A program made the translations under genes and the position numbers. A model generated the notes under the pieces. It saw only the letters and a program-made list of their open reading frames with translations, had not been told where the DNA came from and did no database searches. A stretch of 64,000 bases of DNA from a virus. Its lineage: Duplodnaviria; Heunggongvirae; Uroviricota; Caudoviricetes. Location of the stretch: positions 1 to 64,000 of IMG/VR virus record IMGVR_UViG_3300042914_003231. One strand, given 5' to 3'. How positions within the stretch are numbered: the first letter of the stretch is position 1; the number at the start of each line of letters is the position of its first letter. Of the stretch, positions 8,681 through 37,048 are shown piece by piece.

Positions 8681-9718
8681 TTAAGTTGTTTTATTTTCTT
8701 TCCATTGAATTCCTGGACAGTAGTTCTCTTTAACAGTCATAATATACTGCCAAAAGAATTTGAAGAACTGACCTAAGCCAGATCCTATAACTATAAAGAA
8801 TTTAGCAAATGCTACAGCTGCTTTACCAAAGGTTCTTCCAAACCATGAGTTGCATATACATACAGCACATTTAGTAAATATTCTAGCAAACATCCATACT
8901 ATAAGCACTATAATTCCTACAAATACTAAAATAATTCCAGCATTTCTTAAGAATCTCCAAAGCTTATCTGGATAAAAGTGGGCCCAAGCATAGTCAATAA
9001 CTAACCATACACCGTATGCTATAATTATTAAGAGAGCTATTGCAATAATATAACCTATCCATTTAGTATACTTTACTATATTAGTAAACATCTGTTGTGT
9101 TCTTTTCTTAGCAACTTCTCTAGCTTCCCATTCTTGTTTTTCTTTAAGAGCTAACTCTTCTTGTAGTTTTTTTCTATCTTCAGCAGCTTTTAACCAGCTA
9201 TCTTTTATTTTTTGTCTCATCTCTTTAAGCTTAAGTTCCCAATCAGGATTATCTTGCTTCCAAAGATCAAACTTCTTTCTCATAGCTTTTTTCTTATACT
9301 CTTTTGTACCATAGATAGGATCTTTACCATCTTTATCTAAGAAGTATTCATCTCTCATGAAATGATAATATTCCCAGTCAGCTTCTGAATTACTTCCACG
9401 AGTCCATTCATGATTATAGTTAACTACCCATGCTTTCATAATATCATCCTCTCCCATAATTCTAGCAGCTTGTCTAACTAAAGGTTCACAGATCTTCTGA
9501 TCAAACCAGTCTGTAGACTTCTCTATAAACCAGACAAATCCCTTAACTATTAATAGAATAAGCTTTACTAATGGTACAATAGGTATGATAAAAGTTACTA
9601 GTATACAAAAATTTGTAAGCCAGAAGTAAGGACAGAAGTTGTTGAATCTAGGCGGGTTATTAAAGACAAACCTCTGTAGTCTTCTATGCCATCCATTAGA
9701 ATTTAATGTTATTTCCAT
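8681..9718 (-). CDS. multi-pass membrane protein with a central coiled coil, 345 aa
   Basis: Hydrophobic N- and C-terminal blocks flank the Lys/Glu-rich KLKEMRQKIKDSWLKAAEDRKKLQEELALKEKQEWEAREVAKK. Confidence 0.7.
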   Translation of the reverse strand: MEITLNSNGWHRRLQRFVFNNPPRFNNFCPYFWLTNFCILVTFIIPIVPLVKLILLIVKGFVWFIEKSTDWFDQKICEPLVRQAARIMGEDDIMKAWVVNYNHEWTRGSNSEADWEYYHFMRDEYFLDKDGKDPIYGTKEYKKKAMRKKFDLWKQDNPDWELKLKEMRQKIKDSWLKAAEDRKKLQEELALKEKQEWEAREVAKKRTQQMFTNIVKYTKWIGYIIAIALLIIIAYGVWLVIDYAWAHFYPDKLWRFLRNAGIILVFVGIIVLIVWMFARIFTKCAVCICNSWFGRTFGKAAVAFAKFFIVIGSGLGQFFKFFWQYIMTVKENYCPGIQWKENKTT

Positions 9719-9730
9719 ATTTGTTTTTAA

Positions 9731-9759
9731 TTTTAAAGTTTAAATATTTTAAAGTTTAA
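9731..9759. repeat. direct repeat TTTTAAAGTTTAA x2 (16-nt period) upstream of the 9718 start
   Basis: Read directly at 9731-9743 and 9747-9759. Confidence 0.85.
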
Positions 9760-9884
9760 CTATCAGCAGTCCTTGTACTGTATCTGCTGTTTTATAAGGA
9801 AATAGTTAATAGGTATTGACTGTCTAGTAAGGGCTCCATATAAAGCACTCTCGAGAACTCTGTTACGTATGCACCAAGAGACAG

Positions 9885-13742: not shown

Positions 13743-13937
13743 AATCAAGTTGATGGGATAAAGAAGAAAGAATAGAGTAAGGTGATGAGTGGATCTCTCC
13801 ACTCGCGGCCTTATATAGTTTGTCGTTGCCCTACACATGCAACTATTAAGTATGCAGGGATCGTCCTTGGTTGGCTACATGCTCAAGGATGCATGGATGA
13901 CATGATACCATCTCATCAATCAAGTTCATGGGATAAA
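13741..13937. repeat. 22-mer direct repeat TCAATCAAGTT(G/C)ATGGGATAAA, one copy after each structured module
   Basis: 13741-13762 and 13916-13937 differ by one mismatch and are 175 bp apart. Confidence 0.85.
13783..13918. other. structured module B: inverted repeat TGATGAG(T)GG / CC(AT)CTCATCA
   Basis: 13783-13792 pairs with 13908-13918. An internal hairpin GAGTGGA-tctc-TCCACTC lies at 13787-13804. Confidence 0.5.
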
Positions 13938-14012
13938 AAAAGACAGAACTTTTTCTCCAAGGAAAAAAGTTTCTTACCAGGCTGAATTAGGAAAATGTTT
14001 TTTTCAGACCCT

Positions 14013-14058
14013 GGGGGTAGGGGGTACTATGAAACACGGGGGGAGGTTGTTGGGGAGG
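14013..14058 (+). other. G-run cluster (possible G-quadruplex)
   Basis: GGGGG ta GGGGG ... GGGGGG a GG ... GGGG a GG, within an otherwise AT-rich genome. Confidence 0.4.
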
Positions 14059-14146
14059 ACCCAATCCACAAACACTATTATGTAAAATACCCACCCCGGG
14101 ATATTATATTCTATTGATCAGGTATTGCTTATCTTAGAATTTGAGT

Positions 14147-14154
14147 TATATTTG
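14147..14154 (+). promoter_or_regulatory. Bacteroidota-type -7 box TATATTTG, 4 nt before ATG 14159
   Basis: Matches the TAnnTTTG consensus. Confidence 0.5.
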
Positions 14155-14158
14155 TCCT

Positions 14159-14902
14159 ATGAAAAAAAGTACAATATGGGTTATTGTGGGACTGATAGGA
14201 GTCTTGCTTATTACCCTGGCTTGGATTATGATTTATTCTAAGCCTAAACCTATTCCGGATATAAAAAATGGAGTAACCTATCATAAGATTTATAATCATA
14301 CTAAGGATTCGGTATTGGTATGGGTTACTTTGGGGGCAACCCCGGGGTGTCTGCAGGATGTGACTAAGATACCTTTTGTTACTTCTGGATCAGGGTTAGT
14401 AGGATCCTTCTACCTAGCAGCTGGTGATTCTACTATTTGGTATGCACCGGACTCAGTTGGATTCAATGGAGTATTTAGCTTTAATTATCAGCCAGATAAC
14501 TGCCCAGCTCCTACGTATCCTAACGGTATTAACCAGTATGAGTTTATAGTGAACAATGCATTCCAAGCAGGACAACCTCAAGAGAGTATCAATATCTCAT
14601 GTGTTCATGGGGTGAACTGTGTTATTCGTGTAGATATAATTACTAGTAATCCATTTAATGCCGGCTCTAAAGTTCCTGTTGTGGAAAGCTTTGCTAATAC
14701 ACTTGATCGGAATCAACTTGGTATCCCTGGTGTATACCCGTATGCGTGCACACATTGTACAGACTACATAGGAGCCCCCGGCTGTATCTCTACTCCTCAG
14801 CCTGTTTCTAAAGAACAAATCTGCCAGGTACAAAGACCAGCTAACCAATCAGGAGGAATGATAAAAGTTATATATTTAGGAAATGAAGAACCTGCAAAAT
14901 AA
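14159..14902 (+). CDS. membrane-anchored or secreted Cys-containing protein, possibly thaumatin-like fold, 247 aa
   Basis: N-terminal TM segment. The segment NQYEFIVNN...ESINISCVHGVNCVIRV resembles the thaumatin T.AEF.L...D.YDVSLVDGFN.P pattern. The ATG at 14159 is preferred over the track's TTG at 14141. Confidence 0.6.
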   Translation: MKKSTIWVIVGLIGVLLITLAWIMIYSKPKPIPDIKNGVTYHKIYNHTKDSVLVWVTLGATPGCLQDVTKIPFVTSGSGLVGSFYLAAGDSTIWYAPDSVGFNGVFSFNYQPDNCPAPTYPNGINQYEFIVNNAFQAGQPQESINISCVHGVNCVIRVDIITSNPFNAGSKVPVVESFANTLDRNQLGIPGVYPYACTHCTDYIGAPGCISTPQPVSKEQICQVQRPANQSGGMIKVIYLGNEEPAK

Positions 14903-14903
14903 A

Positions 14904-14935
14904 TTTGCATAATTAAAAAAACTATATTATATTTG
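14904..14935 (+). promoter_or_regulatory. promoter: TTTG (-33) N20 TATATTTG (-7)
   Basis: TTTG at 14904-14907 and TATATTTG at 14928-14935. Same spacing as the promoter at 16511-16542. Confidence 0.6.
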
Positions 14936-14939
14936 TAAC

Positions 14940-15011
14940 ATGAAACTGTTTTTCTTATCGTTTAGTTGTTTATGGTATCTCTCACAAGGAGGCAGCCCGG
15001 GCATTTCATGA
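14940..15011 (+). CDS. leader ORF 1, 23 codons: MKLFFLSFSCLWYLSQGGSPGIS
   Basis: ATG lies 4 nt after the -7 box. Residues 3-15 use only F, L, S, C, W and Y, the amino acids of the next 8 tRNAs. A terminator follows 36 nt after the stop. Confidence 0.5.
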   Translation: MKLFFLSFSCLWYLSQGGSPGIS

Positions 15012-15047
15012 TAGGTTTTTCATAGTTAAACATGATTAATTGACAAA

Positions 15048-15079
15048 ATCCCTGGGCTGATTACCCGGGGATTTTTTTT
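15048..15079 (+). terminator. intrinsic terminator immediately before tRNA-Phe
   Basis: 9-bp stem ATCCCTGGG/CCCGGGGAT with a 7-nt loop and T8. Confidence 0.8.
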
Positions 15080-15151
15080 GGACTCATAGCTCAGTAGGTA
15101 GAGCGCAGGACTGAAAATCCTGCCGCACTGGTTCGATTCCAGTTGAGTCCA
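15080..15151 (+). tRNA. tRNA-Phe (GAA)
   Basis: Acceptor GGACTCA/TGAGTCC; D GCTC/GAGC; anticodon arm CAGGA-CTGAAAA-TCCTG; T arm ACTGG-TTCGATT-CCAGT. Confidence 0.92.
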
Positions 15152-15156
15152 CACAA

Positions 15157-15239
15157 GCCGACACTGTAGAGTGGGAGATCTACACCAGACTGTAAATCTG
15201 GAGTCTTAGACTTTGGGAGTTCGAATCTCTCTGGCGGCA
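15157..15239 (+). tRNA. tRNA-Tyr (GTA), long variable arm
   Basis: Acceptor GCCGACA/TGGCGGC (one mismatch); arm CCAGA-CTGTAAA-TCTGG; T arm GGGAG-TTCGAAT-CTCTC. Confidence 0.85.
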
Positions 15240-15244
15240 CAAAA

Positions 15245-15330
15245 GGAAGGTTGGCAGAGCCTGGCCGATTGCACCAGTCTTGAAAACTGGAGGTCCCTTG
15301 GATCCGTGAGTTCGAATCTCACACCTTCCT
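15245..15330 (+). tRNA. tRNA-Ser (TGA)
   Basis: Acceptor GGAAGGT/ACCTTCC; arm CCAGT-CTTGAAA-ACTGG; long variable arm; T arm GTGAG-TTCGAAT-CTCAC. Confidence 0.9.
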
Positions 15331-15390
15331 CAACATGCATAGAAAAATGCACTTTTCTATACATGTTTTTTGAAAGTGCATAAAAACTAT

Positions 15391-15431
15391 ACATCTCTAG
15401 CTCAACTGGCGGAGCAGCGGTCTCCAAAACC
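15391..15431 (+). pseudogene. truncated tRNA-Trp-like 5' portion (acceptor 5' strand to anticodon loop only)
   Basis: D arm GCTC-AACTGGCG-GAGC and loop CTCCAAA. Shares the 13-mer GGTCTCCAAAACC with the intact tRNA-Trp (15419-15431 versus 15834-15846). No T arm and no 3' acceptor complement. Confidence 0.6.
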
Positions 15432-15464
15432 ATAAAGCAGTTTGGATACTGAAGTAAAAACATG

Positions 15465-15472
15465 TATATTTG
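15465..15472 (+). promoter_or_regulatory. -7 box TATATTTG, 3 nt before ATG 15476
   Basis: Matches TAnnTTTG. Confidence 0.45.
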
Positions 15473-15475
15473 TAC

Positions 15476-15817
15476 ATGCCTTCAAAAAATAAAGAAATAC
15501 TAAAAAAGCATAGAGATGCTTGGTATAAAAAGAATAAAAAAAAACAGATTACTAACCAGCTTGAAAAAAGACAGGAATTAAAGAAATGGTTTCAGGAATA
15601 TAAGAGATCATTATCTTGTAAAGAGTGTGGATTTAGCTTTGAATTATTTCCAGAATGTTGTGATTTCCATCACAGAGATGGAGATACAAAGAAAGATGTA
15701 GTAAGCAGATTGCTACCAATGGGAATAAAAGCACTAAAGAAAGAGATTGAAAAATGTGATCCTCTTTGTGCTAATTGTCATAGAAAGCTCCATGCAAAAT
15801 TAGAATATACAGGTTAG
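15476..15817 (+). CDS. HNH homing endonuclease (free-standing, inside the tRNA array)
   Basis: CKECG...CCDFHHRDGDTKKD...CDPLCANCHRKLH is an HNH/zinc-finger motif. The stop codon lies inside the tRNA-Trp 5' end. Confidence 0.8.
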   Translation: MPSKNKEILKKHRDAWYKKNKKKQITNQLEKRQELKKWFQEYKRSLSCKECGFSFELFPECCDFHHRDGDTKKDVVSRLLPMGIKALKKEIEKCDPLCANCHRKLHAKLEYTG

Positions 15818-15880
15818 CTTATTGGAAGCACCAGGTCTCCAAAACCTCGGATGGAAGGAGTTCGATTCTCTTAACCTGTG
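15809..15880 (+). tRNA. tRNA-Trp (CCA)
   Basis: Acceptor ACAGGTT/AACCTGT; D GCTT/AAGC; loop CTCCAAA; T arm AGGAG-TTCGATT-CTCTT. Confidence 0.85.
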
Positions 15881-15885
15881 CACAA

Positions 15886-15957
15886 GGTACCGTGGGTGAG
15901 GGGTTTAGCCTCAGGTCTGCAAAACCTGCTACGTCTGTTCGAATCAGACCGGTACCT
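15886..15957 (+). tRNA. tRNA-Cys (GCA)
   Basis: Acceptor GGTACCG/CGGTACC; arm CAGGT-CTGCAAA-ACCTG; T arm GTCTG-TTCGAAT-CAGAC. Confidence 0.92.
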
Positions 15958-15958
15958 C

Positions 15959-16174
15959 ATGAAAGAGATAGATGAAGAGTTCAACTTACTTCAGTTGTAC
16001 ATCTATGATTGCATCAACCGGATGTGTTTGAATGCATACATAGATAAGACTAAGTGTTCTCATCACCCTTTGTATACTTTTGAAGAATACAAAACGGCAA
16101 TATGGGATCCTTGGACTGGAGAGACTGTAGCAAGTAGAACAAGATGGGCTTTAAATATTAAGCCTTTATTTTAG
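15959..16174 (+). CDS. hypothetical protein, 71 aa, flush between tRNA-Cys and tRNA-Ser
   Basis: The ATG lies 2 nt after the tRNA-Cys discriminator. The stop TAG (16172-16174) overlaps the tRNA-Ser start (16173). The track ORF 15878.. was trimmed to the first ATG outside the tRNA. Confidence 0.5.
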   Translation: MKEIDEEFNLLQLYIYDCINRMCLNAYIDKTKCSHHPLYTFEEYKTAIWDPWTGETVASRTRWALNIKPLF

Positions 16175-16257
16175 AGAAGTGGCTGAGTGGCTTAAGGCAC
16201 CGCACTGCTAACGCGGAGGATGTAACAGTTCCACCGGTTCGAATCCGGTCTTCTCTG
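16173..16257 (+). tRNA. tRNA-Ser (GCT)
   Basis: Acceptor AGAGAAG/CTTCTCT; loop CTGCTAA; long variable arm; T arm ACCGG-TTCGAAT-CCGGT. Confidence 0.88.
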
Positions 16258-16262
16258 CAAAT

Positions 16263-16343
16263 GCCCATATGGTGGAATGGTAGACGCGCTGGTCTTAGGA
16301 ACCAGTACCGTAAGGTATGTAGGTTCGAGTCCTACTATGGGTA
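16263..16343 (+). tRNA. tRNA-Leu (TAG)
   Basis: Acceptor GCCCATA/TATGGGT; arm CTGGT-CTTAGGA-ACCAG; long variable arm; T arm GTAGG-TTCGAGT-CCTAC. Confidence 0.9.
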
Positions 16344-16348
16344 CATAT

Positions 16349-16431
16349 ACTCCTGTGGTGTAATTGGTAGCCGCGCTAGGCTTAAGACTCAGTGGACTTA
16401 GTCCGTGCCGGTTCGAGTCCGGCCAGGAGTA
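16349..16431 (+). tRNA. tRNA-Leu (TAA)
   Basis: Acceptor ACTCCTG/CAGGAGT; loop CTTAAGA (weak anticodon stem); variable stem GGACT/AGTCC; T arm GCCGG-TTCGAGT-CCGGC. Confidence 0.8.
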
Positions 16432-16474
16432 CTTTGCTCACCTGATTAATAAAGTGACCAAAAATTATTACACT

Positions 16475-16520
16475 GTCTACCAATCAGTTAGACCTTCTGA
16501 AGAAAATATTTTTGGTAGAC
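16475..16520 (+). other. 9-bp stem-loop at the end of tRNA block 1
   Basis: GTCTACCAA (16475-16483) pairs with TTGGTAGAC (16512-16520). The 3' arm overlaps the -33 TTTG of the next promoter. Confidence 0.5.
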
Positions 16521-16542
16521 TCAAACAAACCTATTATATTTG
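16511..16542 (+). promoter_or_regulatory. promoter: TTTG (-33) N20 TATATTTG (-7)
   Basis: TTTG at 16511-16514 and TATATTTG at 16535-16542. Confidence 0.6.
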
Positions 16543-16550
16543 TCTTGCAA

Positions 16551-16652
16551 ATGAAACGCATACAACATATCCAGATGGCCAATACAGGCAGAAATACGGT
16601 GGAGATTAAAGATCCGACCGTGTCCATGGGTGTTGCATGTAGTTTTAGATAA
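16551..16652 (+). CDS. leader ORF 2, 33 codons: MKRIQHIQMANTGRNTVEIKDPTVSMGVACSFR
   Basis: ATG lies 8 nt after the -7 box. Residues 2-24 use only the 14 amino acids served by the 16 downstream tRNAs, and all 14 occur. A terminator follows 28 nt after the stop. Confidence 0.5.
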   Translation: MKRIQHIQMANTGRNTVEIKDPTVSMGVACSFR

Positions 16653-16680
16653 GACATTTTTAGTTAGCTAAACCGCATTA

Positions 16681-16710
16681 AACCCCTGGACAAGTTCTAG
16701 GGGTTTTTTG
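16681..16710 (+). terminator. intrinsic terminator immediately before tRNA-Pro
   Basis: Stem (AA)CCCCTGG/CTAGGGG(TT) with a 7-nt loop and T6. Confidence 0.8.
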
Positions 16711-16718
16711 TTTTACCC

Positions 16719-16791
16719 CGGGATGTAGATCAGTTGGTAGATTGCGTGCTTTGGGAGCATGAGGTCGCAGGTTCGAGCCCTGTCATCCCGA
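16719..16791 (+). tRNA. tRNA-Pro (TGG)
   Basis: Acceptor CGGGATG/CATCCCG; arm CGTGC-TTTGGGA-GCATG; T arm GCAGG-TTCGAGC-CCTGT. Confidence 0.9.
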
Positions 16792-16847
16792 CTAGCAGAA
16801 GTGGTACTCCAGTGCCCGTACTGAAAACCAAACAAAACTGGAGACAT

Positions 16848-16920
16848 GGGGTTCAAGCACAAGCGGACGTGCATTAGCTTTGCAAGCTAGAGGATCTCGG
16901 TTCGAGGCCGAGGAGCTCCA
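16848..16920 (+). tRNA. tRNA-Ala (TGC)
   Basis: Acceptor GGGGTTC/GAGCTCC with a G3:U70 pair; D GCAC/GTGC; arm TTAGC-TTTGCAA-GCTAG; T arm CTCGG-TTCGAGG-CCGAG. Confidence 0.88.
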
Positions 16921-16921
16921 C

Positions 16922-17083
16922 ATGAATGAAGAACTATATAATTGGCTGGAGAAGATGTTTATGTTCTCCAATATCCCTAAGTACAGGAAGTACTTTAAGG
17001 AATGGGTGGACAACATAACTGAAGATCAGATCACCGGTTTTCAGAGAATGATGGGAGCCAACTATAAGATTAAGCAGGAATAG
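16922..17083 (+). CDS. hypothetical protein, 53 aa, flush between tRNA-Ala and tRNA-Gly
   Basis: The ATG lies 2 nt after the tRNA-Ala discriminator. The stop TAG (17081-17083) lies inside tRNA-Gly, which starts at 17074. Confidence 0.5.
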   Translation: MNEELYNWLEKMFMFSNIPKYRKYFKEWVDNITEDQITGFQRMMGANYKIKQE

Positions 17084-17148
17084 CTCATCCTTGGTAGAGC
17101 TCCAGTCTTCCAAACTGGAGGTGGCGAGTTCGAGCCTCGCTTCCTGCT
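17074..17148 (+). tRNA. tRNA-Gly (TCC)
   Basis: Acceptor GCAGGAA/TTCCTGC; arm CCAGT-CTTCCAA-ACTGG; T arm GCGAG-TTCGAGC-CTCGC. Confidence 0.92.
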
Positions 17149-17331
17149 CACAACTGCAGTGCCCATGTACAGTGGGGGTACAATCACTGCAGGTAGAAGA
17201 GTGCTAAGAAATCCGGTGTTGGGTTAGCTCTGGACACTAAGGTAAGGAGTGGGTAAGGACCACAGTCCCCGTCTAACAGGGACAAAGTTTTGCAAAAGCC
17301 TTCCCTGGGATGGAGCACTCTTCATGATATT
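17149..17331 (+). ncRNA. structured non-tRNA spacer RNA (unknown family)
   Basis: 8-bp hairpin CTGCAGTG/CACTGCAG (17154-17192). 10-bp long-range helix GAAGAGTGCT (17196-17205) with AGCACTCTTC (17314-17323). Inner hairpin GTCCC...GGGAC. GC-enriched; no cloverleaf. Confidence 0.4.
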
Positions 17332-17407
17332 GGTCTGTTAGGGGAGTCCGGCCGTCCCTACCTCACTGTCTATGAGGGGATCACGGGTTCGAATCCCGTA
17401 CAGACCG
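17332..17407 (+). tRNA. tRNA-Asp (GTC)
   Basis: Acceptor GGTCTGT/ACAGACC; arm CCTCA-CTGTCTA-TGAGG; T arm ACGGG-TTCGAAT-CCCGT. Position 37 is an unusual T. Confidence 0.78.
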
Positions 17408-17518
17408 CTGGGCGGTAGTCTAATGAGCAGGGTTAGTAGCGTGCTGACTAACTAGTCTTAGGACGATCATCTTATGGGATGATAGATATCAGTAACCATT
17501 CTGATCTGCCCCACCAAT
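17408..17518 (+). ncRNA. second structured non-tRNA spacer (unknown)
   Basis: Hairpins ATCATC-ttatgg-GATGAT and ATCAG-taaccatt-CTGAT; ends ...CTGCCCCACCA; repeated TAGTCT(A/T)A. Confidence 0.3.
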
Positions 17519-17590
17519 TGCCCCTTAGCTCAGCGGTAGAGCAAAACCCTGTTAAGGTTGAGGTCCTAGGTTCAATCCCTAGAGGGGCAG
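17519..17590 (+). tRNA. tRNA-Asn (GTT)
   Basis: Acceptor TGCCCCT/AGGGGCA; loop CTGTTAA; T arm CTAGG-TTCAATC-CCTAG. Confidence 0.9.
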
Positions 17591-17595
17591 CAAAT

Positions 17596-17670
17596 AGACG
17601 AGTAGCTCAGCCTGGTTAGAGCGCCCGCCTGATACGCGGAGGGTCACAGGTTCAAATCCTGTCTTGTCTA
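17596..17670 (+). tRNA. tRNA-Ile (GAT)
   Basis: Acceptor AGACGAG/CTTGTCT; loop CTGATAC; T arm ACAGG-TTCAAAT-CCTGT. Confidence 0.88.
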
Positions 17671-17727
17671 CTTTGGGACCGTTTGGTAGTGACATAGTCT
17701 TGAACTAGATCATAGAAACTATCACAT

Positions 17728-17800
17728 AGGAGTATAGCTCAGTTGGGAGAGCATCCGGTTTACATCCGGACGGTCCAAGGTTCGAGTCCTTGTATTCCTA
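17728..17800 (+). tRNA. tRNA-Val (TAC)
   Basis: Acceptor AGGAGTA/TATTCCT; arm TCCGG-TTTACAT-CCGGA; T arm CAAGG-TTCGAGT-CCTTG. Confidence 0.9.
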
Positions 17801-17884
17801 CAAACTTTAAAGATTTAAACTTATAATGTTTACACTATTAAAATATAAGGTTATAAAGAGAAGGATAAAACCTTAACTCATTAT

Positions 17885-17956
17885 TCCCTCATAGCTTAGT
17901 GGTAAAGCAGTATACTTTTAATATACGGAGCGGCAGTTCGATTCTGCCTGGGGGAA
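17885..17956 (+). tRNA. tRNA-Lys (TTT)
   Basis: Acceptor TCCCTCA/TGGGGGA; arm GTATA-CTTTTAA-TATAC; T arm GGCAG-TTCGATT-CTGCC. Confidence 0.9.
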
Positions 17957-17962
17957 CTTTAA

Positions 17963-18034
17963 ACCCCCGTAGCTCAATGGAAGAGTAAGAGACTTCTAAG
18001 CTCAAGGTTACCAGTTCGAGTCTGGTCGGGGGTT
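17963..18034 (+). tRNA. tRNA-Arg (TCT)
   Basis: Acceptor ACCCCCG/CGGGGGT; loop CTTCTAA (short GAG/CTC stem); T arm ACCAG-TTCGAGT-CTGGT. Confidence 0.82.
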
Positions 18035-18040
18035 CTGAAT

Positions 18041-18114
18041 AGGCCCTTAGCTCAGTTGGTTAGAGCAGTACTCTTATAAGGTAAAGGTCACCGGTTCAAA
18101 CCCGGTAGGGCCTA
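18041..18114 (+). tRNA. tRNA-Ile (TAT), reads ATA
   Basis: Acceptor AGGCCCT/AGGGCCT; loop CTTATAA; T arm ACCGG-TTCAAAC-CCGGT. Confidence 0.85.
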
Positions 18115-18124
18115 CATAATATTT

Positions 18125-18199
18125 AGCGGGGTGACTGGAGTTGGTTCCAGCACAGCCTCATAAACTGTACAGACGCGGGTTCGAGTCCCGCCCCCGCTA
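18125..18199 (+). tRNA. tRNA-Met (CAT), elongator-like
   Basis: Acceptor AGCGGGG/CCCCGCT; loop CTCATAA; T arm GCGGG-TTCGAGT-CCCGC. No 3xG:C initiator signature in the anticodon stem. Confidence 0.85.
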
Positions 18200-18265
18200 C
18201 AATGAGTGCTAATGACACCTGATAAAGGAGGGGATATATTACCAGGTCCCCCGACACTCAGTAAC

Positions 18266-18337
18266 GCTCCCATCATCTAGGGGTCAGGATATCAGGTTTT
18301 CGACCTGAGCACCAGGGTTCGAATCCCTGTGGGAGTA
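18266..18337 (+). tRNA. tRNA-Glu (TTC)
   Basis: Acceptor GCTCCCA/TGGGAGT; arm TCAGG-TTTTCGA-CCTGA; T arm CAGGG-TTCGAAT-CCCTG. Confidence 0.9.
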
Positions 18338-18342
18338 CTTAA

Positions 18343-18415
18343 GCTTGAGTAGCACAATTGGTAGTGCACCTCCCTTGTAAGGAGAAGGTTGTCAGTTCGA
18401 GTCTGACCTCAAGCT
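18343..18415 (+). tRNA. tRNA-Thr (TGT)
   Basis: Acceptor GCTTGAG/CTCAAGC; D GCAC/GTGC; loop CTTGTAA; T arm GTCAG-TTCGAGT-CTGAC. Confidence 0.9.
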
Positions 18416-18417
18416 CT

Positions 18418-18491
18418 GTGTCTGTAGAGGAATTGGTAGACTCCCCGGAATGTGGATCCGGTGCTTGTGGGTTCAAGTCCCATCAGACACC
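18418..18491 (+). tRNA. tRNA-His (GTG)
   Basis: Acceptor GTGTCTG/CAGACAC; arm CCGGA-ATGTGGA-TCCGG; T arm GTGGG-TTCAAGT-CCCAT. The only tRNA followed by an encoded CCA. Base -1 is T, not G. Confidence 0.88.
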
Positions 18492-18497
18492 CCATTA

Positions 18498-18571
18498 GTT
18501 CTCATAGCTCAATTGGATAGAGTCCTTGACTACGGATCAAGAGGTTGAAGGTTCGACTCCTTCTGAGAACA
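18498..18571 (+). tRNA. tRNA-Arg (ACG)
   Basis: Acceptor GTTCTCA/TGAGAAC; arm CTTGA-CTACGGA-TCAAG; T arm GAAGG-TTCGACT-CCTTC. Confidence 0.92.
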
Positions 18572-18576
18572 CATAA

Positions 18577-18647
18577 TGCCCTTTCGTCTAACGGCAGGAC
18601 CTGTGGTTTTGGGCCACATGATCGAGGTTCGAATCCTTGAGGGGCAA
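18577..18647 (+). tRNA. tRNA-Gln (TTG)
   Basis: Acceptor TGCCCTT/AGGGGCA; arm TGTGG-TTTTGGG-CCACA; T arm CGAGG-TTCGAAT-CCTTG. Followed by a T-run. Confidence 0.9.
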
Positions 18648-18680
18648 CTAGTTTTTTATTGTTTGCACATCCAAAGTTTT

Positions 18681-18692
18681 TTTGTATATTAG
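18681..18692 (+). promoter_or_regulatory. candidate late-promoter box TTTGTATATTAG
   Basis: An identical 13-mer TTTTGTATATTAG recurs at 44670-44682, upstream of another structural gene. Confidence 0.4.
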
Positions 18693-18716
18693 CAATAATT
18701 TTCATATATTATTAAT

Positions 18717-19607
18717 ATGGATGTAGTAAACTTTGATGCTCTCAAAGCACAGGGCAAAATTATAAAAATATCAGATGTGAATCCTGATGAGGATTACTTC
18801 ATCATTGGTCATTATGATCCGCGAAGAAGAGAATTTAAAGCTACTGATTACCCTATCTATGCTATAAAAGCACGTGATGTTTTAAATTCTTCAAATGCTT
18901 TTAATAATCCTTTTGATTTCTATTTAGATGGTAATGCTCCTGCAGGAGGGGATGGCTCAGCAAGTAATCCTTTTAATTTATTTTCTCAAGCCGTTGCCTA
19001 TATTAATACACTTCCTTCAGCAACATATACTCTATATGTATTGCCGTACAGTTATACAGAATCATCCCCGGTTATTAATCTACCAAACAATTCTGCTCTA
19101 AATATAATAGGAGTAGTAGCTAATTCTTGTAGCTTTAATTTTAATGTACAATTTACCGCAATACCAGCTTCCTCATATGCTGTATGGTATGAAAATATTG
19201 CTTTTAGTAATTTTGAACTAGATCTTTCTTTAGCATCTTTTGCTTCTATATCCTTTACAGGTTCTAAGGTAGATCTTATAAGAACAGATTCTAATCCTTC
19301 TACTATAGTGACATTACAAGGTGCAATGTTTGCCTCTACCCTTTCCGGTAGAGTTTTATGGTTAAATGGTGTAATGTTTGGTGATATTAATGTTCAAACA
19401 AATGGTGAGTTGTTTTGTAATACGGTATTACAACTACAAGGACAATTTAAGTTAACAGGATCTGCTAAGTTAAAAACTTTAAGTATGCCAAACCCTACAC
19501 CTAATGGTGTAGATGGTATTCCTGTAGGTTTGAATATACCGGTTTGGAGAACTGATGCTGCAAGTGATGAAACTTTTACAGGAACTCTTACAAAAATAAT
19601 ATATTAA
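18717..19607 (+). CDS. tail fibre or receptor-binding protein, 296 aa
   Basis: The N-terminal ~55 aa are paralogous to 19610..20287 (ALKAQGKIIKISD...DYFIIGHY versus LIAQGKILKASE...DYLIIGKY). First gene after the tRNA array. Confidence 0.55.
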   Translation: MDVVNFDALKAQGKIIKISDVNPDEDYFIIGHYDPRRREFKATDYPIYAIKARDVLNSSNAFNNPFDFYLDGNAPAGGDGSASNPFNLFSQAVAYINTLPSATYTLYVLPYSYTESSPVINLPNNSALNIIGVVANSCSFNFNVQFTAIPASSYAVWYENIAFSNFELDLSLASFASISFTGSKVDLIRTDSNPSTIVTLQGAMFASTLSGRVLWLNGVMFGDINVQTNGELFCNTVLQLQGQFKLTGSAKLKTLSMPNPTPNGVDGIPVGLNIPVWRTDAASDETFTGTLTKIIY

Positions 19608-26298: not shown

Positions 26299-26547
26299 AT
26301 GAAATTACTGAAACAGTATTATTTACCTACTCCTGCTAAATGGAGAAGAATCGGAGATGCATTATTAGCTTCTGCTGGTGTAGTAGGTGGTGGTGGATTA
26401 TTAGCTTTTGATGAGTTAAAAGAAATCTTTGATGCTCATGAACTCAAATTAATTATTGGTGGAGTACTTATCTTAGGTATTAGCGGTAAATTTATTACAA
26501 ACTTCTTTGGCCCAGAGAAAAAAGAAGATCAGACACCAAATGCCTAA
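26299..26547 (+). CDS. small two-TM protein (second holin or antiholin?), 82 aa
   Basis: Hydrophobic and Gly-rich segments; located in the lysis cassette. Confidence 0.5.
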   Translation: MKLLKQYYLPTPAKWRRIGDALLASAGVVGGGGLLAFDELKEIFDAHELKLIIGGVLILGISGKFITNFFGPEKKEDQTPNA

Positions 26548-26884
26548 GAAAGTTAGTAATATGACCTGGGCATTTCTAGGTGCAATGGGTGTTATTCTGA
26601 TCCTTGTCCTTATTCTGATATTTAGGAATCCGGAGGTAATTATGCAAGGGCCTGACCGAACTAAAGCACTTCGAGACAGTATCAATTTATTGACCGAACA
26701 GATTAAGGATGAGAAAAGCTACACAGAAAGATATAAGTACATGGCCGATAGTGTTATGAACTTGCCTCCAAAAGTAAAAGTATTCTACTATGAAAAAAAA
26801 CAGTTTGTTACTCGTGCTACTATTAGCCAATTGGACAGTATTATTCGGACAGGTTCCAAACTTCCAATACGGACCACCTATTAA
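26540..26884 (+). CDS. type-II membrane protein, i-spanin-like, 114 aa
   Basis: N-terminal TM segment WAFLGAMGVILILVLILIF followed by a soluble coiled region. Start set at ATG 26540. Confidence 0.45.
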   Translation: MPKKVSNMTWAFLGAMGVILILVLILIFRNPEVIMQGPDRTKALRDSINLLTEQIKDEKSYTERYKYMADSVMNLPPKVKVFYYEKKQFVTRATISQLDSIIRTGSKLPIRTTY

Positions 26885-34279: not shown

Positions 34280-37048
34280 ATGCAAGTATTAAATGCCTTA
34301 CAACTAAAAGGTGGAAAAAAAGCAGAATATAATAGGATGGGATCGATCACCCAACCTCTGCAATTTCTTCCCAGAAAAGATAAAGATCCTGAGTGGAGAG
34401 CTTGGAATATTGACTGGTTAGAATGGAATGGTCTTAAGCAAATCCGTAGAAATGCAAGAAGACTTAGTAAAAACTACAAGCTTGCTAAAGGCGTAATTGA
34501 TAAAACCGACTATATTGTTGAGGATGACAATGAGATGAGAGATCTTGTTGACACTCTTATGAAAGAAGATGTAAGTGCATTGGAACTAAAATTTTACCCT
34601 ATTATACCGAATGTAATCAATGTATTGGTTTCTGAATTTGCAAAAAGAAATAGCAAGATCACTTTCCAGGCAAAAGATGAATACTCCTACAATGAAATGC
34701 TGGAGCAAAAGCGTTCTCAAATAGAGCAAGTGCTTTATTCGCGTGCTGAACAAAAACTCTTAGCAAAGATGTTAGAACAGGGTTTGGACCCTAATGATCC
34801 AGAAGTACAGGAACAGATGCAACAGCAGACTTCTCCGGAAGCTATGAAAACTCTTCCTGAAATCCAGGAATTCTTTGATAAGAGTTATAGAAGTTTAGCT
34901 GAGCAATGGGCTACTCACCAGTTTAAGATCGATGAAGAAAGATTTAGAATGGATGAGCTTGAAGAAAGAGCCTTCCGAGACATGCTTATCACCGATCGCG
35001 AGTTCTGGCACTTTAAGATGAATGATGATGACTATGATATTGAGCTTTGGAATCCAATGCTTACTTTCTACCACAAGTCTCCTGATGCGCGTTATATCTC
35101 TCAGGGTAACTGGGTAGGTAAGATCGATATGATGACTGTGGCCGATGTTGTGGATAAGTACGGCTACATGATGACTGAAGAACAATTGGCATCTCTTGAA
35201 GCTATTTATCCGGTAAGATCTGCAGGTTATCCGTTAGCTGGTTATCAGAATGATGGTTCTTACTATGATGCTACTAAGTCTCATGAGTGGAATACCAATA
35301 TGCCAGGCTTAGCCTACAGACAGTTTGTTTCCATGTATGATAACTTCATCTACAATGGTGGAGATATTATTAACTGGATCATGGCTGAAGGTGAAGACTA
35401 TGCTCCTATGGGGTCTGCTTTTTTACTTCGTGTAACAACAGCTTACTGGAAGTCTCAAAGAAAAGTTGGGCACCTAACAAAAGTAAATGAAAGTGGAGAT
35501 GTAGAAACTGATATTGTAAGTGAAGAATACAAAGTAACTGACAAGCCTATCTATGACACTACTCTTATCAAGAATAAAACTAAGGACACTCTAGTATTTG
35601 GAGAGCACATTGACTGGATCTGGATCAACCAGGTTTGGGGTGGTGTAAAGATTGGCCCTAACCATCCTTCCTTCTGGGGTATGAACAATCCGGGTGGTAT
35701 TAATCCTATGTATTTAGGTATTGATCAGAATCAGATCGGTCCTCTTAAGTTCCAGTTCAAAGGTGACAATACTCTCTATGGATGCAAACTTCCTGTAGAA
35801 GGTGCTGTATTCAATGACAGAAATACAAGATCTACTGCGATGGTAGACTTAATGAAACCTTTTCAAATTGGCTATAATATTGTAAATAACCAAATAGCAG
35901 ATATCTTGGTAGATGAACTCGGTACCGTGATTATGCTTGATCAAAATGCTCTTCCTAAACATTCATTGGGAGAAGACTGGGGTAAGAACAACTTCCAAAA
36001 GGCTTATGTAGCCATGAAGAATTTCCAGATGCTTCCTTTAGATACTACTATTACCAACACTGAGAATGCATTAAACTTCCAGCACTTCCAGGTAATGAAC
36101 CTTGAGCAAACACAAAGAATGCTATCAAGGGTTCAATTGGCCAACTTCTTTAAGCAGCAATGTTTTGAAGTGATCGGTATCACTCCTCAAAGACTTGGTC
36201 AACAGATTGGACAAACTGATACTGCAAAAGGTATTGAGCAGGCTATAATTGGATCATATGCTCAGACTGAGACATACTTTATCCAGCACTCTGATTACTT
36301 AATGCCTCGCGTACATCAGATGAGAACTGACTTAGCTCAGTACTACTGTTCTAAAAAGCCGTCACTAAGACTTCAGTACATGCTTTCCACAGATGAAAAA
36401 GTTAACTTTGAGATGAATGGTACAGAACTTCTTTTAAGAGACATTAATGTATATGCTACAACAAAAGCTAACCAGCGCGCTATTCTAGAGCAAATGAAAC
36501 AACTTGCTGTAGGTAACAATACAACCGGTGCCACTATCTATGATCTTGGTGAGGTTATGCAATCCGAATCTCTTGGTGAACTTACCAACAAGCTTAAAGG
36601 TCTTGATAAGAAAGCACAAGCTCTTCGTCAAGAACAAATGCAGCATGAGCAACAACTTCAAAAGCAAGCTGATGACAGCCGTCTTAAGGAGAAACAACTT
36701 GAGCTTGACTACAAAGCACAAGAAGCTGAGAAAGATCGTAGAAAAGATATCCTTATTGCTGAGATCAAGTCTGCCGGCTATGGAGCTATGCAAGATATTA
36801 ACCAGAACCAACAGTCTGATTACTTGGATGCTTTAGCACAAATAAAGTCTTCTGAAGAGTTTCAGGAGTCTATGAATCTGCAGAACACTAAAGAGAACAA
36901 CCGTATGGCTGCAGACCGTGATAAAGCTCAGATAGAGCGCGAGAAAATGCAAGCTGCCATGAGAATGAAAGAAATGGATGTGGCAATAGCCAGAGAAAAT
37001 AAGAATAAATATGATGCAAAGAAAAAAGATGAGAAAAAGAAAAAGTAG
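34280..37048 (+). CDS. portal protein, 922 aa
   Basis: Position between terminase and scaffold/capsid, and size. Gln/Glu/Lys-rich coiled C-terminal tail. Confidence 0.7.
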   Translation: MQVLNALQLKGGKKAEYNRMGSITQPLQFLPRKDKDPEWRAWNIDWLEWNGLKQIRRNARRLSKNYKLAKGVIDKTDYIVEDDNEMRDLVDTLMKEDVSALELKFYPIIPNVINVLVSEFAKRNSKITFQAKDEYSYNEMLEQKRSQIEQVLYSRAEQKLLAKMLEQGLDPNDPEVQEQMQQQTSPEAMKTLPEIQEFFDKSYRSLAEQWATHQFKIDEERFRMDELEERAFRDMLITDREFWHFKMNDDDYDIELWNPMLTFYHKSPDARYISQGNWVGKIDMMTVADVVDKYGYMMTEEQLASLEAIYPVRSAGYPLAGYQNDGSYYDATKSHEWNTNMPGLAYRQFVSMYDNFIYNGGDIINWIMAEGEDYAPMGSAFLLRVTTAYWKSQRKVGHLTKVNESGDVETDIVSEEYKVTDKPIYDTTLIKNKTKDTLVFGEHIDWIWINQVWGGVKIGPNHPSFWGMNNPGGINPMYLGIDQNQIGPLKFQFKGDNTLYGCKLPVEGAVFNDRNTRSTAMVDLMKPFQIGYNIVNNQIADILVDELGTVIMLDQNALPKHSLGEDWGKNNFQKAYVAMKNFQMLPLDTTITNTENALNFQHFQVMNLEQTQRMLSRVQLANFFKQQCFEVIGITPQRLGQQIGQTDTAKGIEQAIIGSYAQTETYFIQHSDYLMPRVHQMRTDLAQYYCSKKPSLRLQYMLSTDEKVNFEMNGTELLLRDINVYATTKANQRAILEQMKQLAVGNNTTGATIYDLGEVMQSESLGELTNKLKGLDKKAQALRQEQMQHEQQLQKQADDSRLKEKQLELDYKAQEAEKDRRKDILIAEIKSAGYGAMQDINQNQQSDYLDALAQIKSSEEFQESMNLQNTKENNRMAADRDKAQIEREKMQAAMRMKEMDVAIARENKNKYDAKKKDEKKKK

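Follow-up and report, generated by a model that had tools for sequence, protein, structure and literature searches.

Predicted ribosome-mediated attenuators with multi-codon leaders in front of two tRNA gene blocks of a tailed phage

The window analyzed here, 64,000 nucleotides (nt) long, corresponds to positions 1 to 64,000 of the IMG/VR record IMGVR_UViG_3300042914_003231 (Caudoviricetes). It contains 24 transfer RNA (tRNA) genes in two blocks, each preceded by a short open reading frame (ORF), or leader, whose codons match the tRNAs of the block that follows. We consider it quite likely that the two leaders are ribosome-mediated transcription attenuators of the trp/his/ilv type, predicted to control tRNA genes through multi-codon sequences that mirror them. 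This reading is built on the anatomy of the sequence, the correspondence between codons and tRNAs, the predicted alternative structures, and conservation and covariation across phages; from these we infer that the leader ORFs are translated and that read-through depends on stalling.

Two tRNA blocks and the leaders that mirror them

Using ARAGORN, we detected 24 tRNA genes, all on the + strand, between positions 15080 and 18648, and the Rfam tRNA model agreed with these calls. A gap of 286 nt sets the genes apart into two groups of 8 and 16:

15080-16432, + strand: tRNA block 1, with Phe(gaa), Tyr(gta), Ser(tga), Trp(cca), Cys(gca), Ser(gct), Leu(tag) and Leu(taa) (ARAGORN and Rfam)
16719-18648, + strand: tRNA block 2, with Pro, Ala, Gly, Asp, Asn, Ile(gat), Val, Lys, Arg(tct), Ile(tat), Met, Glu, Thr, His, Arg(acg) and Gln (ARAGORN and Rfam)

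Block 1 accounts for {F,Y,S,W,C,L} and block 2 for {P,A,G,D,N,I,V,K,R,M,E,T,H,Q}; no amino acid is present in both sets, and the two add up to all 20. Both programs hence bear out the claim of a first-pass annotation of this DNA that 8 + 16 tRNAs divide the 20 amino acids between them. According to standard wobble rules, the 24 tRNAs of the window can read 60 of the 61 sense codons, CGG being the exception. They form a phage tRNA array, that is, a dense same-strand cluster of canonical tRNAs in a phage genome: the window encodes the terminase large subunit, portal protein and major head protein of a tailed phage (PHROGs), and its terminase is ~24% identical to those of Crassvirales phages of Bacteroides, Flavobacterium and Cellulophaga.

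The leaders and their regulatory cores are located as follows:

14940-15011, + strand: leader ORF 1, MKLFFLSFSCLWYLSQGGSPGIS followed by a stop codon
14946-14984, + strand: regulatory core 1, 13 codons, CTG TTT TTC TTA TCG TTT AGT TGT TTA TGG TAT CTC TCA
16551 (ATG) to 16652, + strand: leader ORF 2, MKRIQHIQMANTGRNTVEIKDPTVSMGVACSFR followed by a stop codon
16554-16622, + strand: regulatory core 2, the 23 codons after the ATG

Each of the 13 consecutive codons of core 1 is readable by block-1 tRNAs, and cognate codons are present for all eight of them, including codons of both Ser families and both Leu families. Regarding core 2, its 23 consecutive codons are all readable by block-2 tRNAs and cover 16 of 16, with individual codons for isoacceptors: the two Arg tRNAs are represented by CGC and AGA, and the two Ile tRNAs by ATA and ATC/ATT. 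The first-pass annotation had counted 13 successive residues of {F,Y,S,W,C,L} in leader 1 and, after the Met, 23 successive residues outside that set in leader 2, and had proposed that each leader mirrors its own block. Both counts were correct, and the mirroring is stronger at the level of codons, where it extends to every tRNA of each block.

In order to assess how often such matches arise by chance, we enumerated every maximal block-readable codon run in the six frames of the 64 kb, obtaining 27,819 runs for block 1 and 29,449 for block 2. Only leader 1 (8/8) and leader 2 (16/16) reached full coverage, the next-best runs in the window covering 7 of 8 and 14 of 16 tRNAs, respectively. In a Monte Carlo simulation with the codon usage of the phage, the per-position probability was 3e-9 for leader 1 and 1.7e-7 for leader 2, with 4e-4 and 2e-2 full-coverage matches expected anywhere in the window. 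According to both analyses we rejected chance, in agreement with the earlier statement that two reciprocal matches would be very improbable. The 14/16 runner-up consists of 15 consecutive codons at 26624-26668 (RNPEVIMQGPDRTKA) inside ORF 26507-26884, with no terminator or tRNA nearby, and we treated it as a chance occurrence. Outside the cores, residues of the other block make up 23 of the 70 positions of the leader tails (counted by eye) versus a 27% background, which gives no signal for cross-regulation.

The block-1 amino acids are exactly the set encoded by UNN codons, and all tRNAs with a long variable arm (Leu, Ser, Tyr) sit in this block. Bacterial tRNAs reading UNN codons usually carry the i6A37 or ms2i6A37 modification, made by MiaA. 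Hence, the partition in two blocks may reflect a shared modification or vulnerability of the block-1 tRNAs, and the make-up of this block may hint at the rationale of the grouping.

Predicted structures and mode of action

Each leader is a short ORF lying on the same strand between a promoter-like element and the tRNA genes, with an intrinsic terminator predicted between the leader and the first tRNA. The elements involved are the following:

14904-14935, + strand: promoter-like element of leader 1, TTTG (-33-like) at 14904-14907 and TATATTTG (-7-like, TAnnTTTG) at 14928-14935, 4 nt before the ATG
14993-15006, + strand: segment 2 of leader 1, the 5' strand of predicted antiterminator 1, in the tail of the ORF, with 2 nt between it and the stop codon
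15045-15079, + strand: predicted intrinsic terminator 1, AAAAUCCCUGGG-loop-CCCGGGGAUUUU plus U-run, -17.5 kcal/mol, 1 nt before tRNA-Phe
16511-16542, + strand: promoter-like element of leader 2, made up of TTTG at 16511-16514 and, 8 nt ahead of the ATG, TATATTTG at 16535-16542
16623-16634, + strand: segment 2 of leader 2, the 5' strand of predicted antiterminator 2, UCCAUGGGUGUU, predicted to pair with AACCCCUGGA at 16681-16690
16680-16715, + strand: predicted intrinsic terminator 2, AAACCCCUGGA-CAAGU-UCUAGGGGUUU plus U-run, 3 nt before tRNA-Pro

Upstream of both leaders is TTTG-N20-TATATTTG, which we take to be of the -33/-7 type used by the primary sigma factor of Bacteroidota, as in work on Bacteroides and Flavobacterium. 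In the related loci described below, TTTG-N19-21-TAnnTTTG sits 4-12 nt before ATGAAA in 18 of 26 leaders. The bipartite motif is not enriched across the window (4 found, 3.25 expected) and is present before both leaders. Presumably these elements act as promoters and, since they end 4 and 8 nt before the start codons, the messenger RNAs (mRNAs) would be leaderless or nearly so.

The two predicted terminators are GC-rich hairpins, with energies from -15 to -18 kcal/mol, followed by a U-run that ends 4-12 nt before the first tRNA. When compared to dinucleotide shuffles, the leader RNAs fold better, with z = -2.6 for leader 1 and -3.8 for leader 2. When the leaders are folded over their full length, the minimum free energy (MFE) structures show the regulatory codons paired with the tail of the ORF, i.e. 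with the antiterminator strand (1:2 helix), and the terminator (3:4) forms. We then folded partial transcripts that start where the core ends and stop at the terminator loop, and in these the ORF tail pairs with the 5' arm of the terminator (2:3, the antiterminator). In antiterminator 1, CAGCCCGGG at 14993-15001 is predicted to pair with CCUGGGCUG at 15051-15059; the antiterminator 2 duplex has a free energy of -11.4, with 1% of shuffles equally good. Segment 2 lies within the ORF and begins 0-12 nt past the last regulatory codon, so that a ribosome finishing the ORF would cover it, and one stalled earlier, in the core, would leave it free. In silico, both leaders hence have a predicted antiterminator that overlaps the 5' arm of the terminator and an upstream strand that a ribosome can occlude.

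These predictions extend to the related loci. An antiterminator was predicted in all 13 leaders folded; of the 12 for which both energies were computed, 8 had an antiterminator that equalled or exceeded the terminator in stability. Relative to shuffles, the duplex energy ranked at 0.1 or below in 13 of 17 leaders. When terminator arms were swapped between leaders, the tails preferred their own arm, and none of 100,000 permutations was as good (p ~1e-5).

According to the proposed mechanism, each tRNA unit would have a Bacteroidota-type promoter of its own, and the resulting mRNA, leaderless or nearly so, would open with the short ORF, the core of which holds at least one codon per downstream tRNA. 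With fast decoding of all core codons, the ribosome would reach the ORF tail and the stop codon and cover segment 2; the terminator hairpin (3:4) would then form and RNA polymerase would stop just before the first tRNA. If any one core codon were slow because its charged tRNA is scarce, the ribosome would stall in the core, opening the 1:2 helix, and the freed segment 2 would pair with segment 3, so that no terminator would form and the entire tRNA block would be transcribed. The newly made tRNAs would relieve the stall, closing a negative feedback loop. Given that any single slow codon would suffice, each leader would work as an OR-gate over its block, and the array as two independently sensed regulons of 8 and 16 tRNAs. 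The earlier idea that a block is switched on when its own codons are decoded slowly is thereby supported in silico by the anatomy of the leaders, the property they conserve and their covariation. As for the trigger, one could speculate about host tRNA depletion, codon mismatch or anticodon nucleases.

Related arrays and competing explanations

We collected related arrays by locus searches of IMG/VR, JGI metagenomes, Logan/ENA assemblies and metagenome-assembled genomes, calling weak tRNAs in these loci with ARAGORN at a relaxed threshold. A 253-aa protein flanking the array had 111 homologues. A 17-nt DNA pattern from leader 1 gave 18 matches in IMG/VR, of which locus L141 was the sole true relative, and the downstream 296-aa protein gave no IMG/VR loci. 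Against cultured-phage records, megablast with the array returned isolated tRNA matches only, and tblastn with the 253-aa protein found nothing. Contigs P0088, P0099, P0098, P0043 and P0076 carry loci without tRNA arrays, and P0051 has two tRNAs only.

The 8+16 layout is common to L001, L013, L061, L077, L089 and L141, together with the partial loci L011 and L071. Among the loci with complete blocks where it was scored, leader 1 covers 8 of 8 tRNAs in six out of six; leader 2 covers 16 of 16 in five loci and 15 of 16 in L013. Over the related phages as a whole, eight retain 8/8 coverage, and 5 of 7 retain 16/16. Examples of leader 1 are CLYWSLFS, LSSLSFSSCLWYL and SLCFSYLWSSLL, the first of which (L001) has exactly 8 codons for 8 tRNAs. 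Examples of leader 2 are KHVQHINIQVAKAMITRRGDEP, KNTIHIQPVMKNTQRGDEA, KQNIHITQPNMGRTRKADEV and KHIINIMQVGKTAERDPRT, and a compact one, MKHIINIMQVGKTAERDPRT, serves 16 tRNAs with 19 codons. The order of residues is altered in the leaders of L001, L013, L061, L077, L089, L071 and L141 despite the coverage of the tRNAs. Because order differs and coverage persists, the leaders, at the level of sequence, conserve composition and not peptide sequence. Terminator stems vary between relatives, and segment 2 changes along with them. The comparison of homologous arrays that had been suggested in the first-pass annotation therefore turned out in favor of its proposal, with coverage kept while residue order is scrambled and with antiterminators that covary with their terminators. 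Across loci, nearly all junctions at which a tRNA follows a terminator were found to have a leader ORF, the exception being the duplicate locus L088.

In lineages with the same flanking gene and other partitions of the array, the composition of the leaders tracks the amino acids of the new block:

Pro-Phe-Gln block: leader cores FFPQQPFF, FFPQQQPF and FPQPQQPF (4 sequences)
Pro-His-Ser-Ser-Tyr-Leu-Leu(-Gln) block: leader cores LSLHSSLSLTQYPQ (L024) and SLQLSHLQPQYLP (L097)
Tyr-Pro-Thr-Leu-Ser-Ser-Leu block: leader core YLSPSSLSPSYPS (L054)
Trp...Lys block of 17 tRNAs (L041): 35-codon leader core covering 16 of the 17
Two to four Arg tRNAs: ORFs ending, right before the stop codon, in RTRNRRRR, PRRRSRRSRRR or RKRSRRFRRR, with codons for every Arg isoacceptor
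Single tRNA-Gln: QQQQ or QQQQQ leaders

When each leader was compared by log-odds with the different amino-acid sets, the own block scored best for 22 of 24 leaders. The match between regulatory codons and the tRNAs that the unit supplies is hence replicated, and covaries, in relatives. We think it likely, with somewhat less assurance than for the two attenuators of the window, that environmental crAss-like Bacteroidota phages carry modular codon-mirror attenuators, serving anything from a single tRNA-Gln to a 16-tRNA block, in which a leaderless mini-ORF inventories the downstream anticodons and the unit is autoregulated by the decoding speed of its own codons.

Some further features of these lineages were observed. 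The Pro-Phe-Gln leaders (L004, L005/L087, L006, L009/L010) share a conserved N-terminal MK-x-(I/L)N(T/I)YNN, made of residues outside their own block. The ORFs preceding the Arg sub-blocks in L024, L028, L041, L010 and L097 end in Arg runs (reverse-complement coordinates for L024, L028, L041 and L097), and their stop codon lies within the short hairpin GACGG-TAACT-CCGTC, after which comes a pyrimidine-rich stretch. Finally, L089/L090/L091 constitute, at ~13760-13915, a natural variant without Ile(UAU/CAU), Met and Glu tRNAs in which leader 2 keeps the codons for them; the tRNA-Thr of these loci (13837-13913) was missed by ARAGORN.

One could argue that these are genuine attenuators with another purpose, sensing the amino-acid supply or translational capacity of the host as a signal of timing or nutrition for the rightward transcription unit of structural genes, with the feedback on tRNAs being incidental. 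Classical attenuators answer to charged tRNA, so that amino-acid starvation would stall ribosomes as well. Isoacceptors always share a block (Ser UCN with Ser AGY, Leu CUN with Leu UUR), as would fit sensing at the level of amino acids, and the lack of a terminator after the last tRNA means that read-through could continue towards ORF 18717. However, that downstream gene has a separate promoter-like element, and leader content tracks the next block across at least eight partitions, down to single-tRNA Gln and Arg units. Moreover, isoacceptors are covered individually, as in CGC/AGA and ATA/ATY or in the AGG, AGA, CGC and CGG codons that accompany four Arg tRNAs. We consequently regard this explanation as unlikely, albeit the most serious of the alternatives.

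The short ORFs could also encode functional micropeptides, such as a hydrophobic membrane peptide in the case of leader 1, the match to the tRNA set being a by-product of composition. Core 1, LFFLSFSCLWYLS, does resemble a hydrophobic segment, and the motif FSCLWYL is conserved in five relatives. Yet residue order is not conserved in L001, in L077 or in any leader 2, whereas the coverage of each tRNA is; leader 2 and the Arg-run, Gln-run and FFPQQPFF leaders share no peptide character; and the tails are constrained as RNA, with an antiterminator that covaries with the terminator. The scrambled order of residues among relatives led us to reject a functional micropeptide, which we judge very improbable. 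Even harder to credit is that the hairpins are ordinary terminators or processing signals within a constitutively read-through unit, with a match between leaders and tRNAs due to chance or to a post-hoc partition. The choice of the block boundary was indeed partly post hoc, and the run at 26624 reaches 14 of 16 block-2 tRNAs by chance inside a protein gene. Nevertheless, the full-coverage runs are unique in the window and lie exactly at the block starts, their joint probabilities per position are those given above, and the pattern is replicated and covaries in independent lineages, so that this explanation is disfavored statistically. We also rejected a T-box riboswitch (RF00230, with a stem I specifier loop and a T-box sequence), given that an Rfam scan of 14000-19500 returned tRNAs and sub-threshold noise only.

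Several observations weigh against attenuation of the tRNA genes by their leaders. The predicted antiterminators are weak in the leader 1 of L061 and L077. In leader 2 of the window, the Asp and Pro codons lie 7-12 nt from segment 2, so that a ribosome stalled there might mask the antiterminator, and several sensor codons are present in a single copy. The leader 2 of L013 lacks a CGN codon, the L054 core lacks Thr, and in L089 (three assemblies) the Ile2, Met and Glu tRNAs have been lost while the leader still has ATA, ATG and GAG. The Arg-type leaders have no canonical terminator, and may use a different read-out mechanism. Within block 1, the HNH insert detailed in the next section brings its own promoter-like motif (15441-15472), preceded by a terminator-like hairpin (15335-15372), and hence the five distal block-1 tRNAs of the window may escape the control of leader 1. 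Finally, crAss001, a cultured Crassvirales phage with a 23-tRNA array, is a relative without such leaders: it has no leader ORF plus terminator before its blocks and no terminator-before-tRNA junction, so that we found no ready experimental model.

Other features of the array and comparison with known systems

Block 1 of the window is interrupted by inserted ORFs at 15332-15808 and 15959-16172, both of which are missing from relatives. The first belongs to a cassette at 15332-15881, missing from L001 and L061, that contains the following elements:

15335-15372: AT-rich terminator-like hairpin
~15392-15437: remnant of a tRNA-Trp, its 5' two-thirds, matching the L001 tRNA-Trp
15441-15472: promoter-like TTTG...TATATTTG
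15470-15817: HNH endonuclease ORF
15809-15881: divergent, low-scoring replacement tRNA-Trp (Rfam, 30.8 bits)

The cassette looks like a homing-endonuclease insertion that replaced the resident tRNA-Trp. Regarding block 2, a small ORF at 16922-17083 (MNEELYNWLEKMF..., ~53 aa) begins directly after tRNA-Ala and overlaps the start of tRNA-Gly; given its conservation in L141, it probably represents a genuine small gene within the block. The spacer between tRNA-Gly and tRNA-Asp (17150-17331) contains a structured RNA conserved in six of six aligned relatives (alignment A3), for which RNAalifold predicts 23 pairs, 13 of them with compensatory changes. It matches no Rfam family and is probably a small stable RNA co-transcribed with block 2. 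A conserved hairpin-forming spacer between tRNA-Met and tRNA-Glu (18201-18265) is common to L001 and L077, and is overlapped by a sigma-70-like promoter match at 18212-18240. Among the related loci, L087 has a permuted tmRNA at 9550-9843 (Rfam RF04321, 53.8 bits), directly upstream of a conserved 249-aa gene.

Control of tRNA genes is generally placed at promoters, through growth rate and the stringent response, and in phages at temporal promoters. In the leaders described here, the decoding speed of a set of codons appears to feed back directly on the transcription of the tRNAs that read those codons. We found no earlier description of tRNA-gene attenuation by leader peptides in full-text literature searches, a viral-tRNA review or Rfam. 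If the reading is true, this would be the first case of tRNA genes under ribosome-mediated attenuation, adding to attenuation a new class of targets and a design based on a multi-codon inventory. It would account for the way in which phages with near-complete tRNA sets keep from making tRNAs needlessly, with a sensor plausibly tuned to the loss of host tRNAs or to anticodon-nuclease defences. It would also bear on why phages carry tRNAs, be it as an on-demand supply or to counter tRNA-targeting defences, and would offer synthetic biology compact, natural and programmable sensors of the availability of individual tRNAs.

As an array, the 24 tRNA genes resemble those of T4, T5 and crAss001, which are also dense same-strand clusters near a module boundary, with interspersed HNH homing-endonuclease genes and small stable RNAs. 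The T5 array differs in being annotated with many constitutive promoters and no such leaders. In T5 (L149, positions 35617-35892 of the record, minus strand), T5.072 includes SWEGWEGEIEWLYFY, with many W, E, Y and F residues, upstream of Tyr-Glu-Trp-Phe tRNAs. This ORF has 91 aa, with an annotated promoter and no attenuator-like terminator between it and those tRNAs, and the match in residues may be a coincidence.

Regarding regulation, the mycobacterial leaderless polycysteine short ORFs, described as Cys-responsive attenuators (bioRxiv 10.1101/834739), are similar in that their translation speed reports one amino acid and controls downstream genes. They sense a single amino acid, precede protein-coding operons and belong to another phylum. 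T-box riboswitches and the pheST (pheM) attenuator likewise turn scarcity of charged tRNA into antitermination of genes for decoding capacity. T-boxes, in contrast to our leaders, bind uncharged tRNA directly through a specifier codon and the T-box sequence, and the known targets of both are genes for aminoacyl-tRNA synthetases, biosynthesis or transporters, whereas here the predicted targets are tRNA genes. No cis-regulatory Rfam family matched within 14000-19500.

In the multivalent attenuators of ilvGMEDA (Ile/Leu/Val) and thr (Thr/Ile), one leader likewise integrates shortages of several amino acids in the manner of an OR-gate. Those leaders sense two or three amino acids of a single pathway, whereas the phage leaders hold a one-to-one inventory of tRNAs that changes when the inventory changes. 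There is also a likeness to trpL, hisL, leuL and pheL, the leaders of amino-acid biosynthetic operons described by the Yanofsky model. In both kinds of leader, regulatory codons sit in a short ORF, the first regulated gene comes after an intrinsic terminator, known or predicted, and a mutually exclusive antiterminator has its 5' strand at the end of the leader ORF. In the classical leaders the codon region pairs with that strand when untranslated, and the MFE folds of the phage leaders predict such a pairing. Unlike in the classical cases, the predicted targets are tRNA genes instead of enzymes, so that the product relieving the stall would be the tRNA itself; the codons span 6 or 14 amino acids (8 or 16 tRNAs), mostly in one to three copies, instead of a run of a single codon; and the mRNA is apparently leaderless, phage-encoded and driven by a Bacteroidota-type promoter. 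With these differences, the phage leaders have, in sequence and predicted folding, every feature expected of a Yanofsky-type attenuator at that level.

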